DNA of 64,000 nucleotides from Bacillota bacterium (GCA_033809515.1 JAPXLN010000006.1:15186-79185), one strand, 5' to 3'. Counted from the stretch's first letter, positions 5,014 to 11,561 are shown. Notes: generated from the sequence alone by a model not told the origin. Numbers and translations are program-made.

Positions 5014-5201
5014 AGACTAATCGCGCCGTACAGGCAACTTCTCGGCGGGCAGGGAAGATGACAGCCATCAGAGAAAAGTAAGGAAGGCAGTAAGGCCAAG
5101 AGACGAGTGTGAGCTTGTTGTCGCACCGCGCTCAGCCCAAGCTTTGGGGCAGAGCAAAGAAGACAGAGTGAGCGGCAGGGGCGAAACAGGAGGCGACCGG
5201 A

Positions 5202-6086
5202 CTGAATACAGGGGTCATATTTAACATTCAAAGGTACTCCATACATGATGGGCCGGGTATCAGGACGACCGTGTTCTTTAAGGGGTGTCCGCTGAGGTGT
5301 CTGTGGTGCCATAATCCGGAAAGTCAGATGGCAGGGCCTGAGCTTATGGTTTGGAGGAGCCGGTGTATCTCCTGTGGGGCATGCGTACGGGTCTGCCCTT
5401 CAGGAACGGCAAGAGAGGAAATGTGTGCCCTCTGCGGGAGGTGCGTGGAGGTCTGCCCTGCTAAGGCAAGGGAACTTGTGGGAAAGAAAGTCACGGTTGA
5501 CTATGTGGTTAAAGAGGTTCTGAAAGACAGGGTGTTTTATGAGGAATCCGGCGGCGGCGTCACTTTTTCCGGAGGAGAGCCGCTTATGCAGCCTGCGTTT
5601 CTCAGAGAGTGCCTGGAGGGGTGCAAAGAGGAAGGTCTGAACACTGTAGTCGATACCTCGGGGTTCGCTCCGTGGGACAGTATAAAGGCGGTATTCCCCC
5701 TGACAGACTTGTTTTTGTACGACATAAAGACCGTTGATGATGCCAGACACAGAGAGTACGTAGGTGCGCCCAGTGCCCTTGTATTGGACAACGTGAACCG
5801 GCTGGTAGCAGAGGGAGCTTGCGTTGTGGCAAGGTTGCCCTTGATACCGGGAGTCAATACGGATGATTCAAGCTTAAGGGATATAGGCGAATTTCTGCAG
5901 CGTACGGGCCTCAGGCGTATTGACGTGTTGCCATATCATGATACCGCCAAAGAGAAATATTCGAGGCTCAACAGGCAATATGCATTAGACAATGTACCGC
6001 CTGCATCAGGCGACGACCTGGCGCGCGCCCGGGGTATCCTTGGCGAGTTTGGCCTGGTTGAGGCGAATGGGAGGGAGTCACCATGA
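5202..6086 (+). CDS. glycyl-radical-enzyme activating enzyme (radical SAM, with two extra ferredoxin-like Cys clusters); start uncertain (candidate CTG at 5202; ORF track gives GTG 5271)
   Basis: GCPLRCLWCHNPES is a CxxxCxxC radical-SAM motif. CISCGACVRVCPSG and CALCGRCVEVCPAKA are typical of GRE activases. The conserved N-terminus GVIFNIQRYSIHDGPGIRTTVFF is in frame upstream of 5271 with no ATG/GTG/TTG. AGGAGG at 5188-5193 lies 8 nt before the in-frame CTG at 5202. Confidence 0.8.
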   Translation: MNTGVIFNIQRYSIHDGPGIRTTVFFKGCPLRCLWCHNPESQMAGPELMVWRSRCISCGACVRVCPSGTAREEMCALCGRCVEVCPAKARELVGKKVTVDYVVKEVLKDRVFYEESGGGVTFSGGEPLMQPAFLRECLEGCKEEGLNTVVDTSGFAPWDSIKAVFPLTDLFLYDIKTVDDARHREYVGAPSALVLDNVNRLVAEGACVVARLPLIPGVNTDDSSLRDIGEFLQRTGLRRIDVLPYHDTAKEKYSRLNRQYALDNVPPASGDDLARARGILGEFGLVEANGRESP

Positions 6087-8443
6087 GAGACAGAGTAAGA
6101 AAGCTCCGGGAAAGGAGCCTTGAGGCAGTGCCGACTCTTTCTACAGAGAGGGCCTGCCTGCTTACGGAGGCATACGGGAAATATGAAGGCAAGACGTCAG
6201 TTCCTGTGCTTAGGGCAATGGCCTTCAGACACCTAATGGAGAACAAGGAAGTCTATATAGGCCCGGATGAGTTGATTGTGGGAGAACGGGGTCCCCTTCC
6301 TAAGGCCACGCCTACTTACCCTGAGCTTTGCTGCCATACCCCGGATGATCTGCAAATCATAAGCGACAGGGAGAAGACTTTCTTCAAAGTAAGCGAAGAA
6401 GCTCAAAGGACTCAGGCTGAAGAGATTATTCCCTTTTGGCAGGATCGGTCAATGCGTAGGAAGATATTTGACCACATGACAAAGGAGTGGAAGGACTGCT
6501 ACGAAGCCGGGCTTTTCACTGAGTTCATGGAGCAACGAGCTCCGGGACATACGGTGGCAGACGACAAAATATACCAAAAAGGTTTCCTTGATTTCAAAGA
6601 GGATATCAGGGAAAGCCTTGAGAGCATCGACTATCTCAATGACCCGGAAGGCTATGACAAAGAGCAGGAACTGCAGGCCATGATGATATGCTGTGATGCC
6701 ATAGTGACATATGCCCGGCGGCATGCGGCGAAAGCCCTGGAAATGGCAGAGAAAGAGACTGACGGGCGCAGAAAGCATGAGCTTGAGGAAATCGCACGGA
6801 TTTGCTCCCGGGTTCCGGCTCATTCTCCACAGACTTTCCGGGAAGCTCTTCAGGCGTACTGGTTTGTGCACCTGGGGGTAATCACTGAGCTTAACACCTG
6901 GGACTCTTTCAACCCGGGAAGGCTGGACCAGCACCTTTACCCGTTCTACAAGAAGGAACTGGAAGATGGGACCCTCACCCGGGAAGACGCCGAGGAGCTT
7001 TTGCAGTGCTTCTGGGTTAAGTTCAACAACCAGCCGGCCCCTCCTAAGGTAGGCATTACTCTGGCTGAAAGCGGAACCTACACGGATTTTGCCAACATAA
7101 ACACAGGGGGGTTGACGCCTGACGGAAAAGACGGCGTTAACGATGTCACCTATCTTATACTGGACGTAATTGACACCATGCGTTTGGTTCAGCCTAGCTC
7201 TAACATTCAGCTCAGCGCGAAGAATCCGGACAAGTTCCTGAAAAGGGCCTGCGAGATCATACGCAAGGGATGGGGGCAGCCGTCAGTCTTTAACGCCGAC
7301 GTCATTGTCGAGGAAATGCTGCTGCAGGGGAAGTCCGTTGAGGATGCCCGCTGTGGGGGCACCAGCGGTTGTGTTGAGACAGGATCTTTCGGCAAAGAGA
7401 GTTACATCCTTACAGGGTATTTCAACCTAATGAAGGTCTTGGAGATAACCTTGCACAACGGCGTCGACCCCAGGACAGGAAAGAAACTTGGATTAAGCAC
7501 GGGAGACCCCGGGAACTTTGATTCTTTTGAATGTCTCATGAGCGCGTTCAATAAGCAGCTGGACCACTTTATAGACATTAAGATAAGAGGCAACCAGGTC
7601 ATTGAATCTCTGTACGCCAGACACATGCCCTCGCCCTTTCTCTCTGTGATAATCAGCGATTGCATTGAGAAAGGGAAGGATTACAACGCCGGAGGGGCCC
7701 GGTACCACAGCAGGTACATTCAGGGAGTTGGAATAGGGACGATTACAGACAGCCTTTCGGCAATCAAGCGCCATGTCTTTGAGAGACGGGCAGTAGACAT
7801 GGCAGGCCTTTTGAGCGCTCTTGAGGCAGATTTTGAGGGACATGAGGTTTTGCGCCACACTCTTCTTAACCATACCCCCAAATACGGAAATGACAATGAC
7901 TATGCTGATTGCATTATGAAAGAGGTGTTTGACGTCTTCTTTCAGGCGGTCAACGGCAGAAGGAGCGTTACAGGGGGCACATACAGGATAAACATGCTTC
8001 CGACCACCTGCCATGTGTATTTCGGTTCGGTTATCGGTGCCACGCCCGACGGAAGAAGGGCTTTCCAACCGTTGTCTGAGGGCATATCGCCGGTACAGGG
8101 GGCAGACCGGCTGGGTCCTTCAGCTGCTGTCAAATCGGCGTCAAAAATGGACCATGTGAAGACCGGAGGTACTTTGCTCAACCAGAAGTTTACGCCTGCG
8201 CTTTTGGAGGGAGAGATAGGCTTAGATGCTTTGGCGCGTCTTGTTAGAGGGTATTTCCGGTTGGGAGGGCATCACATTCAGTTTAACGTGGTAAGCGCTG
8301 AAGTTCTGAAAAAGGCTCAAGATAACCCCGAGGAATACAGGGATCTGATAGTGAGAGTTGCAGGGTACAGTGACTATTTCTGCGACCTGTCCAGGGCCCT
8401 TCAGGATGAGATAATCGCGCGAACGGAACACCGGGTCTTTTAA
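6083..8443 (+). CDS. glycyl radical enzyme, PFL2/glycerol-dehydratase-like 1,2-eliminase class (786 aa); substrate unassigned
   Basis: C-terminal glycyl-radical motif RVAGYSDYF with the Gly at ~residue 761. Active-site loop GGTSGCVETG has a single Cys with Glu two residues later, as in glycerol dehydratase, HypD and CutC. Start ATG overlaps the activase stop (ATGA). Confidence 0.85.
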   Translation: MRDRVRKLRERSLEAVPTLSTERACLLTEAYGKYEGKTSVPVLRAMAFRHLMENKEVYIGPDELIVGERGPLPKATPTYPELCCHTPDDLQIISDREKTFFKVSEEAQRTQAEEIIPFWQDRSMRRKIFDHMTKEWKDCYEAGLFTEFMEQRAPGHTVADDKIYQKGFLDFKEDIRESLESIDYLNDPEGYDKEQELQAMMICCDAIVTYARRHAAKALEMAEKETDGRRKHELEEIARICSRVPAHSPQTFREALQAYWFVHLGVITELNTWDSFNPGRLDQHLYPFYKKELEDGTLTREDAEELLQCFWVKFNNQPAPPKVGITLAESGTYTDFANINTGGLTPDGKDGVNDVTYLILDVIDTMRLVQPSSNIQLSAKNPDKFLKRACEIIRKGWGQPSVFNADVIVEEMLLQGKSVEDARCGGTSGCVETGSFGKESYILTGYFNLMKVLEITLHNGVDPRTGKKLGLSTGDPGNFDSFECLMSAFNKQLDHFIDIKIRGNQVIESLYARHMPSPFLSVIISDCIEKGKDYNAGGARYHSRYIQGVGIGTITDSLSAIKRHVFERRAVDMAGLLSALEADFEGHEVLRHTLLNHTPKYGNDNDYADCIMKEVFDVFFQAVNGRRSVTGGTYRINMLPTTCHVYFGSVIGATPDGRRAFQPLSEGISPVQGADRLGPSAAVKSASKMDHVKTGGTLLNQKFTPALLEGEIGLDALARLVRGYFRLGGHHIQFNVVSAEVLKKAQDNPEEYRDLIVRVAGYSDYFCDLSRALQDEIIARTEHRVF

Positions 8444-8461
8444 GGGAATCGCGGGGTTTGG

Positions 8462-10540
8462 TTATTCGAGCCCGACCTGGTAGTCGTAGACTATCTGGGA
8501 TATGCGGCCGATATACTCAAACCCCAGTTCCACGTCGTCGTGGCCCTTGGACATGATTGACAGAATGTAGGGACGATCTGCGTAGATTATGCCCACGTCG
8601 TCAGCTACTCCTGTTATGTCGCCTTCCTTGTGGCCTACCTCTACTCTGTCGCCGATGAACCGGTTTAGCCCTGTGTTCCAGATTGTGTGGGACAGGTCGT
8701 ACATGAGTTTTTCGCCTTCGGCGTTTGACCGGGCAAAGTTTAGGGCCGCTTCCATGTAGGTTGCCATGTCCCTGGCCGTTGAGATGTTCTGGCCTCCGGG
8801 ATAGACGACCGTGCCTCCCAGGGTCCTCATGAAACCGGCGATGTTACCTACTCCAAGCCTTCGCTCGAGCATTTTCCAGGCTACGTTGTCGCTTTCAACG
8901 ATAGCCTTTTCGGCCAGTTCTCTCATGGAGAAGCTGTCCCCGTCCTTAGCCGTGAATTGGAGCGATCCTGCGCCGCCCCTCCAATCTCTGTCGGAGTTGT
9001 ACGTCAGACGCTCGTTCCATGACAGTTTCCCCTGGGACACAAGGTTTGCGACGTAGAGCACGACGGGCACCTTTACAGTGCTTGCTGCCGGCACCGGAAG
9101 GTCTTCATTTATGCCAAAGGTCTTGCCTGAGGTCAGATCCTTGAAGAAGATGCCCCATTGTCCTCCCAGCCCGGAAACGTAGTCCTGGAGCTCGTCTTTT
9201 AGTTCAGCATAGCTGGGATTCCAGGGATCCTGGCTTTCGCCTGGGCTTGCGGTTCCACCGGAGCTTCCGCTGCCACCGGAGACACTCATTTTGCTGATGA
9301 TATCCATGCCTCTGATGCCGTGCAATGACTCGTTTGTGTAGCCTAGCCTTTGCCGGCAAATCCGCCACACTGCGCCTGTTCCGGATTTACCTGAGTACCC
9401 TGCGCCCTCTGTTTGGGTAACCCCCATGTCAACCAGATAGAGGCAGCCGTCAGGTCCGAACTCGGCATCTACGAGCCTGTTGAAGCCGGTGAGGCTGTCG
9501 CCTGCAGGAATGTTGGTCTTGTTCTGGGCAAAAACATGGGATGCGCCTGTTTCGGGGTCCAGTCTCAATACCTGGCTTGCGGATCCCTGCTTTGAGGTCA
9601 TGGAGGTCCACAGGCGGGAGCTCCCATGTTCCAGGGACCCAAAGGTTGTCAGGTAAACGTCGTTGGGAGAACCAAAACGCACAGGCGCAACGTCGCAATG
9701 CATTGTGGCATTCTGCGGTATGGTGGTTATGCGCACGGGAGGAGCGCCTGTGGTGCCGCTGCGGTACCCGGGGGCGATTTCCGGACCGCCCTCAGTCCCT
9801 GAAGGTCCCTGGCCCTCTTTGCCCTTGCCCTGCATCACGCCCTGAACCACAATTAGCGCAGGGTCGTCGCCTGATAGGAACCCAAAGGCATACGGGCCGG
9901 TCAGCCCTGATACCACAAGGTTCTTTTCAATGCTCTGGCCTGCGGCTGCGGGGTCTATCCGGAATATGGCGCCCTTTGCCGTACCTGTGGCAGGGGCGCC
10001 GGTGCCTAGGTAGATCATTCTGTCGGGGCCGACCTTGACGCTAAGCGGAACCCCGTATTGAGAAGGCGCTTCTACTAGGTCCTGCCTTACTCCGGCGGTG
10101 AACGCTGATAGCATGTTCTCGTGAGCTACGTACATAGTGCCGTCGTGGAACCGGATATCTGCAATGCTTTTCAGCCCGGTAATGACTGAAGCGCTGGTTT
10201 CGCTGTCAATGCGCAATACACGGCCCGGCGCAGTTTGGTTTGTCCGGGCGACCGAAGCGCTGATGGATGAGGCAGCCTCAGCCACGTACATCCGGCCCAT
10301 GTCATCCCAGGTGACTGAAGCCGGCGAAGTGAGACCTGTTACGACAGCTTCAATGTGGTAACCTGCAGGGAGCACCACCGGGTTGGTGCCGGCACGGGCC
10401 GGTCGTATGATGAGCGTTGCAGCAGAAACTATTGCTAAAAGGCCAACGAGAATTCCCCAGAACACTCTCTTTGACACGACATAGATTCCTCCCAGGGCAA
10501 AGTTCCTGTCGTAAGTATGTCCCCGGGAGGATCGAAGCAA
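8462..10540 (-). CDS. secreted/membrane-anchored fusion protein: N-terminal beta-propeller (sorbosone-dehydrogenase/NHL-like) + C-terminal class-A beta-lactamase-like serine-hydrolase domain
   Basis: N-terminal hydrophobic anchor VFWGILVGLLAIVSAATLII. Propeller-like repeats occupy residues ~40-430. The C-terminal domain aligns to class-A beta-lactamases: STVK (SxxK), ESDN (SDN), and HKEGD in place of KTG. Confidence 0.55.
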   Translation of the reverse strand: MLRSSRGHTYDRNFALGGIYVVSKRVFWGILVGLLAIVSAATLIIRPARAGTNPVVLPAGYHIEAVVTGLTSPASVTWDDMGRMYVAEAASSISASVARTNQTAPGRVLRIDSETSASVITGLKSIADIRFHDGTMYVAHENMLSAFTAGVRQDLVEAPSQYGVPLSVKVGPDRMIYLGTGAPATGTAKGAIFRIDPAAAGQSIEKNLVVSGLTGPYAFGFLSGDDPALIVVQGVMQGKGKEGQGPSGTEGGPEIAPGYRSGTTGAPPVRITTIPQNATMHCDVAPVRFGSPNDVYLTTFGSLEHGSSRLWTSMTSKQGSASQVLRLDPETGASHVFAQNKTNIPAGDSLTGFNRLVDAEFGPDGCLYLVDMGVTQTEGAGYSGKSGTGAVWRICRQRLGYTNESLHGIRGMDIISKMSVSGGSGSSGGTASPGESQDPWNPSYAELKDELQDYVSGLGGQWGIFFKDLTSGKTFGINEDLPVPAASTVKVPVVLYVANLVSQGKLSWNERLTYNSDRDWRGGAGSLQFTAKDGDSFSMRELAEKAIVESDNVAWKMLERRLGVGNIAGFMRTLGGTVVYPGGQNISTARDMATYMEAALNFARSNAEGEKLMYDLSHTIWNTGLNRFIGDRVEVGHKEGDITGVADDVGIIYADRPYILSIMSKGHDDVELGFEYIGRISQIVYDYQVGLE

Positions 10541-10553
10541 ACGAGCTCCTGAT

Positions 10554-11408
10554 TCACCTGGCTATCGGGTAAAGGACGATTCCGATCATGCCCGGACCGC
10601 CGTGAATAGCCAGTGCAGGCCCAATTTCGCTAATGTGCAGTTCCTTGACATCAATTCGCCGCCTGATGAGCGCGGCAAAGTTTTCAGCTTCTTCCAGGGC
10701 GTTGGCATGAACTACGGACACGACTGCAGGCAAGTTTCCCACAGCTTCAGCAGCCAGATCGGCAACTTTTGAAAGAGCTCGGGAAAAGGTTCTGACGTGG
10801 TCTACGATTTTGACCATGCCGCCTTTGATCTCGATGACCGGCTTGATTGAAAGCAGTGAGGCCAGTGCTGCTTGTCCTTGACGAACCCTGCCGCTTCGTC
10901 GGAGATACTTGAGGGTGGGTATTGCGCCGAACATGTGGATCTTTGACCTCAGGGAATCCAATCCGGCCAGGATCTCCTCCTTGTTCAGGCCTGCAGCAGC
11001 AGCTCTTGCAGCTTCCATCGCCAGGAATCCGACCCCCATAGAAGCTGCTTTGGAGTCGTATACTGTAACGTCAACCTCAGGCACAGCTTCTGCAGCTATG
11101 GCTGCAGCCTGGCAGGTAGCGCTTCCGTCAGCCGTAACGTGTATAGAGATGATCTCCTTGACCGTCTTGGACAATGACTTGTAGGCCTCCAGAAACTCGT
11201 TAGGGGGTGGGCTCGAGGTGGTTGGCATGGTTGGGCCGTCGAGTTTCTCATAGAACTCTTCTGTGGAAAGGTCCATTCCGTCTCGATAGGTGGCATCTCC
11301 AATCTGTACCCAGATAGGTACTACCATTATGCTGTTTTCCTGCTTCATTTTGGCAGTAAGGCCGGAGGCGCTGTCGGTTACCACTGCAAGATTCTTCATG
11401 TGCACCAT
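10554..11408 (-). CDS. degV: DegV family fatty-acid-binding protein
   Basis: LAVVTDSASGL, VPIWVQIGDATYRDGMDLSTEEFYEKL and PTTSSPPPNEFLEAYKSL match the DegV family closely. Confidence 0.75.
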   Translation of the reverse strand: MVHMKNLAVVTDSASGLTAKMKQENSIMVVPIWVQIGDATYRDGMDLSTEEFYEKLDGPTMPTTSSPPPNEFLEAYKSLSKTVKEIISIHVTADGSATCQAAAIAAEAVPEVDVTVYDSKAASMGVGFLAMEAARAAAAGLNKEEILAGLDSLRSKIHMFGAIPTLKYLRRSGRVRQGQAALASLLSIKPVIEIKGGMVKIVDHVRTFSRALSKVADLAAEAVGNLPAVVSVVHANALEEAENFAALIRRRIDVKELHISEIGPALAIHGGPGMIGIVLYPIAR

Positions 11409-11561
11409 GCTCCTTTGCGGGGGTCAAGGAAGCGTTTTCAGATCCAGTATATACCTGTCAGGAGCTCAATGCCAAGCATTGCCGGGGACTTGCATTGGGA
11501 AAATAAGCCTGTGGAACCGGCGAGTATTGCCAATTTATGGGGGTTGTGGTAGGCTGTTGTC

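Follow-up and report, generated by a model that had tools for sequence, protein, structure and literature searches.

The closest characterized homologue of the protein described here is PBP-A of Thermosynechococcus elongatus (Tll2115; PDB 2j7v, 2j8y), which has the class A beta-lactamase fold without the omega-loop Glu and has been shown experimentally to be a DD-carboxy/endopeptidase (PMC11189452). Its family is restricted to cyanobacteria, and when the Glu was introduced into PBP-A, the activity still fell short of a natural lactamase by five orders of magnitude (PMC11189452). Bifidobacterial proteins annotated with the Pfam family Beta-lactamase2 (PF13354) have no nitrocefin activity and give no resistance (PMC3855789). 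The present analysis concerns a gene on the minus strand of a 64,000-nucleotide stretch of DNA from a Bacillota bacterium (GCA_033809515.1 JAPXLN010000006.1:15186-79185), called the window below. The gene encodes a protein of 692 amino acids (aa), identical to P0001 of the public collections, that joins a beta-propeller to a hydrolase domain of the PBP-A kind. We are strongly inclined to regard it as a non-lactamase serine hydrolase fused to an eroded propeller of the sGDH type, that is, of the soluble pyrroloquinoline quinone (PQQ) sugar dehydrogenases. The fuller account is an exported penicillin-binding protein (PBP)-type serine acyl-hydrolase of the cell envelope with an altered carboxylate subsite and an eroded propeller, and it is offered with moderate confidence. 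The architecture, folds, motif states, selection pattern, distribution and synteny were observed directly; the chemistry, the charge inversion of the subsite, the substrate and the export are inferred.

An earlier note on this DNA had read the protein as an N-terminal segment, an sGDH/NHL-like propeller, a Gly/Ser linker and a class A-like domain. The open reading frame (ORF), the Pfam matches and the AlphaFold2 model agree on this architecture (Table 1). The model has a mean predicted local distance difference test score (pLDDT) of 76.9 over the whole protein and consists of an N-terminal helix, a six-bladed propeller and an alpha/beta domain of the class A type. The propeller contains 24 strands between residues 61 and 396, which form six four-stranded blades, and the Gly/Ser-rich part of the linker (residues 419-438) reads SVSGGSGSSGGTASPGESQD. 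No second copy of the gene was found in the window by tblastn.

The hydrolase domain matches PF13354 over residues 463-663 and profile positions 1-213 of 214 (156.4 bits, E 8.4e-46). This passes the gathering threshold of 22 bits and bears out the colinearity with class A enzymes claimed in the earlier note. The motifs reported there, STVK (487-490), ESDN (549-552) and KEG (638-640), are present, and the omega-loop Glu is missing as stated: Tyr580 occupies the position of class A Glu166, the segment VYPGGQN (579-585) contains no Glu, and Y580, P581 and N585 are invariant in the family. S487, K490, S550, D551, N552, H637, K638, E639, G640 and D641 do not vary among the 30 homologues aligned. 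The family-specific loop at residues 518-528 is nearly invariant within the fusion clade and is modelled at low confidence. The SxxK and SDN motifs of class A beta-lactamases were therefore found, while three other features were not: the KTG/KSG triad, the omega-loop Glu166 and a score above the cut-off of the curated NCBIfam model bla_class_A, to which the window protein aligns with 64.1 bits against a cut-off of 200 (complete relatives, 61-67 bits). The structures nearest to the domain are Enterococcus faecalis 3cjm and the cyanobacterial DD-peptidase PBP-A, together with uncharacterised "putative" lactamases.

The domain is 95% identical to that of the nearest relative. Between the window gene and P0002, the ratio of nonsynonymous to synonymous substitution rates (dN/dS) is 0.07 for the hydrolase domain and 0.47 for the propeller, and in nine pairs of complete homologues the corresponding values are 0.03-0.06 and 0.05-0.13. 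The lactamase-like domain, which had been called degenerate, is not; it is the most constrained part of the protein, and the degenerate part is the propeller. The motif and domain features are far beyond chance, given the E-values of the hidden Markov model (HMM) matches and the conservation in about 30 independent genomes.

A scan with residues 440-692 against 1.84 billion representative proteins returned 6787 relatives of the hydrolase domain, mostly standalone proteins of about 320 aa. Among the best 179 of these 6787, the box reads K-I-G in 80, K-E-G in 43, K-V-G in 34 and K-T-G in 10, which makes the canonical Thr the exception and Ile or Val the usual middle residue. The name given by NCBI to members of the wider PF13354 family is "serine hydrolase". 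The KEG clade comprises the fusion proteins together with standalone ones of 42-50% identity, and in the aligned sequences KEG is a fixed, clade-defining state common to both. At the position 14 residues before the motif Lys, all 41 KEG sequences have Gly, whereas 85 of 90 KIG or KTG sequences have Arg. Several class A enzymes place their carboxylate-binding Arg at position 220. We read the exchange of Thr/Ser for Glu and the loss of the upstream Arg in the KEG clade as a likely charge inversion of the subsite in which the substrate carboxylate normally sits.

Among other multi-domain proteins of this hydrolase family, the fusion partner is CWB2 (P0135, P0164), SH3_3/4 (P0097, P0115), Amidase_6 (P0036), Peptidase_C39_2 (P0099), PGA_cap (P0109, P0174) or Cu_amine_oxidN1, and these partner domains are all from extracytoplasmic, cell-envelope contexts. 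Fusions with the poly-gamma-glutamate capsule protein CapA (PGA_cap) are recurrent among the PF13354 "serine hydrolases". Standalone KEG homologues with 43-51% identity (L036, L042, L043, L044, L045 and L058) were also found on contigs binned into Ignavibacteriales, Chitinophagales and Betaproteobacteria metagenome-assembled genomes (MAGs). All six come from one project, PRJNA950955, and these contigs could reflect mis-binning or horizontal transfer out of Bacillota.

The window protein resembles PBP-A, which is also exported, in its SxxK and SDN motifs, in the H-K-x-G-D context and in the missing omega-loop Glu (Leu158 in PBP-A, Tyr580 here). It differs in having KEG without the upstream Arg where PBP-A has KTG (K219-T-G), and it is a propeller fusion from anaerobic Bacillota whereas PBP-A is a single-domain cyanobacterial protein. 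The window protein would work like PBP-A, yet it falls outside the PBP-A family because of KEG, the absence of Glu96 and its non-cyanobacterial origin. The specificity of PBP-A for D-iGln (amidated) muropeptides was considered for the window protein and rejected, since Glu96 is not conserved.

With 3cjm (E. faecalis NP_815223.1, a "putative beta-lactamase") and the PF13354 "serine hydrolase" family the window protein shares the D-[YW]-x-x-G-[AST]-G loop, the H-K-x-G box in which x is not Thr and a family-wide tendency to fusion with cell-wall modules. That family mostly has K-I/V-G with the Arg, whereas the window protein belongs to the clade with KEG and Gly. The Ambler class A enzymes (TEM, SHV, CTX-M, KPC, PenP) have the same fold, SxxK and SDN motifs and colinear order; the window protein differs from them in lacking a Glu166 equivalent, in having KEG for KTG/KSG and in scoring far below the curated HMM cut-offs.

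The propeller is descended from an sGDH-type, PQQ sugar dehydrogenase-like propeller, as judged from the sequences and models of the complete relatives. Pfam GSDH (PF07995) matches 26 of 30 homologues, along with DUF7133; the window protein has no GSDH match in Pfam and only a DUF7133 match of 25.4 bits, below the cut-off of 27. A complete homologue aligns residue by residue to sGDH ("YAWGLRNPFALRF...DQG...WYGWPD" against "YTLGHRNPQGLAF...EQG...NYGWPN"), and a complete-propeller model (predicted template modelling score, pTM, 0.88) has PQQ-type sugar dehydrogenases as all of its top 22 Foldseek neighbours (2ism, sGDH, AA12, Adh, Asd). The fold neighbours of the window propeller are generic propellers only. 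GxRNP and YGWP are kept together in 24 fusion loci, 23 of which also keep LPxGDH or a close variant.

In the window protein all three motifs are lost. The LPxGDH site, which we take to be the catalytic His144 site of sGDH, reads APSQYG, GLTGPY stands in place of G[LF]RNP, and the YGWP loop has given way to a low-complexity stretch with pLDDT below 50 (alignment columns about 370-430). The two closest relatives, P0002 and P0003, share these losses. The last blade, where the PQQ-carboxylate-binding Arg pair of sGDH presumably lies (R406/R408), returned only NHL-type matches when searched, and the search with the first blade was dominated by designed "Pizza" propellers. The similarities to ScyD/ScyE and to the N-domain of PVC-type heme-binding proteins are below the cut-offs for the window protein; one complete relative just reaches ScyE_fam (81.8 bits, cut-off 80) over part of the model only. 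Because the three motifs are lost and the dN/dS is 0.47 against 0.05-0.13 in complete homologues, the propeller is read as eroded: the blades are kept, the pocket is gone and the constraint is relaxed. In a neighbor-joining tree without support values, P0017/18 appear as a second lineage with independent degeneration and P0030/32/33 as one without a propeller. This suggests recurrent erosion or loss of the propeller, with at least two lineages in which it is degenerate and one that lacks it. The internal branching of this tree was not relied upon, as it places the window clade beside a positional group other than the one indicated by synteny.

The soluble PQQ dehydrogenases (sGDH 1c9u, Asd 2g8s, TTHA0570 2ism; GSDH PF07995) are thus the known proteins closest to the complete propellers, which share the six blades, keep LPxGDH, GxRNP, DQG and YGWP and have these enzymes as their top fold neighbours. 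The window copy lacks these motifs and loops and falls short in both the motif and the threshold comparisons; even a complete relative reaches only 31.7 of the 434.55 bits required by TIGR03606. It is doubtful that these proteins act as classical PQQ dehydrogenases, because the hosts are fermentative anaerobes without respiratory chains. NHL-repeat propellers, such as the extracellular sensor domain of Mycobacterium tuberculosis PknD (1rwi), are similar in blade-level sequence and extracytoplasmic location. Unlike PknD, the window protein carries neither a kinase nor another signalling domain and lacks a stable membrane span, and in its complete relatives the central blades have sGDH-specific motifs.

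A locus scan with one genome per species gave 64 loci, about 30 of which contain the fusion; the more distant loci have standalone domains only. The fusion loci are labelled Ca. Fermentithermobacillaceae, unclassified Bacillota or "Eubacteriales", with one MAG labelled Aneurinibacillus, and their sources are mostly anaerobic digesters and coal-fire soil. The fusion is therefore confined to the uncultured anaerobic class Ca. Fermentithermobacillia (DTU015) and has not spread across Bacillota. The suggestion that it might be conserved in related spore-formers holds within this class and fails for the phylum. Members of DTU015 are fermentative, mostly non-respiring anaerobes, predicted to be motile, spore-forming rods and scavengers living on peptides, amino acids and N-acetylglucosamine (PMC10215811).

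One ORF encodes the whole fusion in at least 24 independent genome assemblies, and P0002 and P0003, from two other independent assemblies, have the reduced form unbroken. This rules out the merging of two genes by a frameshift, a possibility that the earlier note had itself raised. A literature search found no publication on the fusion or the KEG clade, in line with that note's statement on the novelty of the fusion; the database names are automatic only ("hypothetical protein", "serine hydrolase", "beta-lactamase class A/glucose/arabinose dehydrogenase"). Propeller-less KEG hydrolases that are 71-72% identical to the C-terminal domain of the window protein (L030, L031, L032) have only a short N-terminal hydrophobic and linker region before the hydrolase. 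One of them (L032:7584-8828) is the copy in the complete chromosome of Ca. Fermentithermobacillus carboniphilus Bu02. In the MAG DUSS01, a full fusion (L015) occurs alongside a copy without the propeller (L031), which indicates paralogy within the class.

In the proposed mechanism, the protein would be exported through Sec and its signal peptide cleaved. The C-terminal domain would act as a PBP-type serine acyl-hydrolase in which Lys490 activates Ser487 while Ser550 and Lys638 shuttle protons. Acylation on Ser487 would be followed by slow or substrate-assisted deacylation, without a general base from the omega loop. Because the catalytic set is intact without this base, the domain is expected to work as a low-molecular-weight PBP-type peptidase and not as a beta-lactamase, with a peptide of the cell envelope as its putative target. 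Glu639 and the missing Arg may favour a group that is neutral or positively charged, such as an amidated residue of a stem peptide. A free carboxylate beside the scissile bond would be poorly recognised, so a low reactivity with beta-lactams is predicted, with a weak affinity for these compounds and for D-Ala-COO- termini. The complete propellers of the family probably bind or act on a sugar of the same envelope polymer because their pocket motifs are kept under strong constraint, whereas the window propeller would be a scaffold or targeting module at most. Taken together, the findings favour a hydrolase of the PBP type, probably a poor binder of beta-lactams.

Several observations weigh against this account. 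The putative assignment to peptidoglycan draws on the similarity to PBP-A, at 29% identity, and on the domains fused to relatives in the KEG clade and the wider 3cjm-like family, both uncharacterised. The hydrolase domain is acidic (pI, the isoelectric point, of 4.8), and the authors of the PBP-A work tied an acidic pI to proteins that avoid the anionic peptidoglycan (PMC11189452). Glu96 of PBP-A, which selects D-iGln-amidated peptides, aligns with Gly523 of the window protein, tentatively in view of the low identity ("APEAGTLQ" in PBP-A, "RGGAGSLQ" here; residues counted from Ser61). The covariation of Glu and Gly is confined to a single clade and may record one historical event and not a repeated coupling. 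We take position 624 to be class A position 220 by sequence spacing only. The cleavage of the signal peptide is likewise a prediction from the N-terminal sequence. The orientation of the two domains to each other is modelled without confidence (pTM 0.54), and the eroded propeller may retain some function, since its dN/dS of 0.47 does not reach 1.

The points on substrate bear most directly on the possibility that a serine hydrolase of the same fold acts on another target, such as teichoic-acid D-alanyl esters, poly-gamma-glutamate or another polymer, or scavenged peptides or muropeptides. With Glu, Ile or Val in place of the KTG Thr, the usual contact to the carboxylate is lost throughout the family, PGA_cap, a domain of poly-gamma-glutamate capsule synthesis, and Peptidase_C39_2 occur as fusion partners of relatives, the domain pI is acidic, and DTU015 bacteria are predicted to be peptide-, amino acid- and N-acetylglucosamine-fermenting scavengers (PMC10215811). 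However, the closest characterised homologue is a DD-peptidase, several partners of the relatives are classic peptidoglycan-binding modules (SH3, CWB2, Amidase_6), and the conserved synteny is among housekeeping genes and not in a catabolic cluster; another target is considered possible on these grounds, although doubtful. An extension of the envelope hydrolase account, in which the complete form is a previously undescribed bifunctional exo-enzyme whose propeller binds or oxidises a glycan while the KEG hydrolase, with its charge-inverted carboxylate subsite, cuts an amidated or cationic peptide on the same polymer, is more speculative and seems unlikely. In this view the propeller has an intact pocket for sugar and cofactor, its translation is often coupled to that of a small DUF6789 membrane protein, and the glycan might be a sugar of peptidoglycan or the reducing end of one. 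If true, it would mean glycan-and-peptide processing for wall remodelling or dead-wall scavenging in anaerobic thermophiles, and the window copy would be a natural "propeller-dead" variant in which the two activities are separable.

The earlier note had left its guess at function between a non-lactamase serine hydrolase and a binding or sensor module. The first part agrees with KEG, the missing Glu166 and the 64 against 200 bits; the second would have the lactamase-like domain bind a beta-lactam or muropeptide without turnover, with the propeller as an NHL/PknD-like sensor. Although the altered KTG box could be explained in this way, strong purifying selection keeps all the catalytic residues invariant, the protein has neither a transmembrane output domain nor a cytoplasmic signalling domain, the sole hydrophobic segment is signal-peptide-like and no regulator gene is a conserved neighbour, which makes a sensor improbable. 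A genuine but unusual beta-lactamase that gives antibiotic resistance would account for the Beta-lactamase2 match, for weak matches to many class A families, for the SxxK and SDN motifs and for N585, an Asn close to position N170. Such an enzyme is very hard to reconcile with Tyr580 in place of the omega-loop Glu, with a KEG box that would put a carboxylate where the beta-lactam carboxylate binds, with the bla_class_A score or with nearest structures that are a DD-peptidase and uncharacterised "putative" lactamases. The bifidobacterial PF13354 proteins without activity (PMC3855789) and the PBP-A given Glu (PMC11189452) argue in the same direction. The lost propeller motifs, the low-complexity replacement, the raised dN/dS and the propeller-less versions in related genomes might instead suggest a whole gene in decay (an incipient pseudogene) or an assembly or frameshift artefact. 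Since the ORF is intact, the C-terminal domain has a dN/dS of 0.07, the reduced architecture is intact in P0002 and P0003, the single-ORF fusion recurs in at least 24 genomes and the propeller models as six blades with mostly high pLDDT, this is the least credible of the explanations, with hardly any probability left to it.

The reading as a PBP-type envelope hydrolase likely corrects a mis-annotation, because the label "beta-lactamase class A" given by pipelines inflates resistome counts in digester and environmental metagenomes. The clade with KEG and without the upstream Arg is a natural test of how specificity is set in the PBP/class A lactamase lineage, and the same question underlies the work on converting PBP-A to a lactamase. 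The family is also a possible model for the decay of one domain inside a fusion protein. The immediate impact is modest, as the hosts are uncultured.

Table 1. Features of the propeller-hydrolase gene and of its upstream neighbour in the window.
Feature	Position	Strand	Residues and remarks
Longest ORF, including the stop codon (8462-8464)	8462..10540	(-)	692 aa from TTG
Probable true coding sequence	8462..10477	(-)	671 aa; GTG 10475-10477 = codon 22
Shine-Dalgarno-like GGGAGGA	10487..10493	(-)	9 nt 5' of GTG; read from the sequence
Predicted signal peptide	10391..10477	(-)	22-50 (MSKRVFWGILVGLLAIVSAATLIIRPARA / G51); basic n-region, hydrophobic core, A-x-A
Six-bladed beta-propeller, sGDH/NHL type, eroded	9347..10378	(-)	55-398
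APSQYG for LPxGDH	10052..10069	(-)	158-163
GLTGPY for G[LF]RNP	9890..9907	(-)	212-217; site of the PQQ-binding sGDH HRNPQG segment (Arg228/Asn229)
Low-complexity KGKEGQGPSGTEGGPEIAPGYRSGTTGAPP	9737..9826	(-)	239-268; complete homologues have DRGSRPVANAPD...WYGWPD; YGWP loop deleted
Interdomain linker	9224..9346	(-)	399-439; predicted helix 405-422, then Gly/Ser-rich disordered stretch 419-438
PBP-A/3cjm-like serine hydrolase domain, class A beta-lactamase fold	8465..9223	(-)	440-692
SxxK with nucleophilic Ser, S487-T-V-K490	9071..9082	(-)	S487 and K490 invariant
Family-specific loop R518-D-W-R-G-G-A-G-S-L-Q528	8957..8989	(-)	form D-[YW]-x-x-G-[AST]-G; from the alignment
SDN motif S550-D-N552 (ESDN 549-552)	8885..8893	(-)	invariant
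Omega-loop equivalent V579-Y-P-G-G-Q-N585	8786..8806	(-)	aligned to PBP-A wild type and L158E mutant
W621-N-T-G624	8669..8680	(-)	G624 is 14 residues before the motif Lys; Arg in non-KEG relatives
H637-K-E-G-D641, KTG box with Glu for Thr/Ser	8618..8632	(-)	invariant in 30 homologues and among standalone KEG relatives; K638-E-G640
DegV-family gene, directly upstream	10554..11408	(-)	PF02645, E 1e-77; conserved syntenic neighbour

The real start of the gene is probably the GTG at 10477 rather than the TTG of the longest ORF, because of the GGGAGGA upstream of it and because the homologues, including the gene call of the closest relative P0002, begin at the equivalent MSKR... position. The N-terminal hydrophobic segment (residues 26-45; modelled helix, residues 24-44) had been described as a membrane anchor. 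It ends in an A-x-A sequence (A48-R-A50 / G51) that is kept across homologues, with A50 nearly invariant in the alignment of 30, and for this reason a cleavable Sec signal peptide appears more likely.

The order HlyD-GroEL-GroES-ComEA / DegV-fusion is common to the window, eight complete-fusion loci and the P0002 locus, with GroEL 79-86% identical across the syntenic loci; by position, then, the window gene is orthologous to the complete versions. The degV and fusion genes are possibly co-transcribed. A scan for promoters and terminators gave counts at the shuffled expectation, and the sole promoter-like site lies upstream of degV (11446-11475).

In 12 loci (L004, L002, L005, L011, L012, L018, L019, L020, L022, L024, L027 and L028), all with complete propellers, a gene for a DUF6789 membrane protein directly precedes the fusion gene. 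The protein has about 140 aa (L004:7525-7953; PF20587, 28.5 bits against a cut-off of 27.1), and the median gap to the fusion gene over nine loci is -3 nt, with a 4-nt overlap in L004. The window lacks the gene, as does every locus whose propeller is degenerate or missing, and so do ten complete-propeller loci. The association with a complete propeller gives p = 0.02 in Fisher's exact test, uncorrected for phylogeny, and the DUF6789 protein may be a functional partner of the propeller. A conserved 187-aa protein without a Pfam match is encoded between degV and the DUF6789 gene in L004 (6860-7423) and seven other syntenic loci. No homologue of it occurs anywhere in the window, which indicates that the interval between degV and the fusion gene has been shortened in the window lineage.

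A functional link to the glycyl-radical enzyme and its activase (5271-8443) was considered and rejected, since no GTDB-representative locus has these genes beside the fusion. Elsewhere they co-occur with it only in L001, which is the window's own contig, and the near-identical relative L066 has an unidentified convergent gene. The stop codons of the convergent glycyl-radical enzyme (+) and fusion (-) genes are only 18 nt apart (8443-8462). There is no terminator-like hairpin in this gap; the only terminator-like sites are at 8316-8342 (-), inside the 3' end of the glycyl-radical enzyme gene. The activase ORF (5172-6086, +) is listed from the GTG at 5271, right at the CxxxCxxC cluster (FFKGCPLRCLWC), and the in-frame stretch 5172-5270 encodes the apparent remainder of the activase N-terminus (...GVIFNIQRYSIHDGPGIRTTV). 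From the stop at 5169-5171 onwards this stretch has neither an ATG nor a GTG or TTG, which suggests a non-canonical start codon or a 5' lesion in the activase gene.

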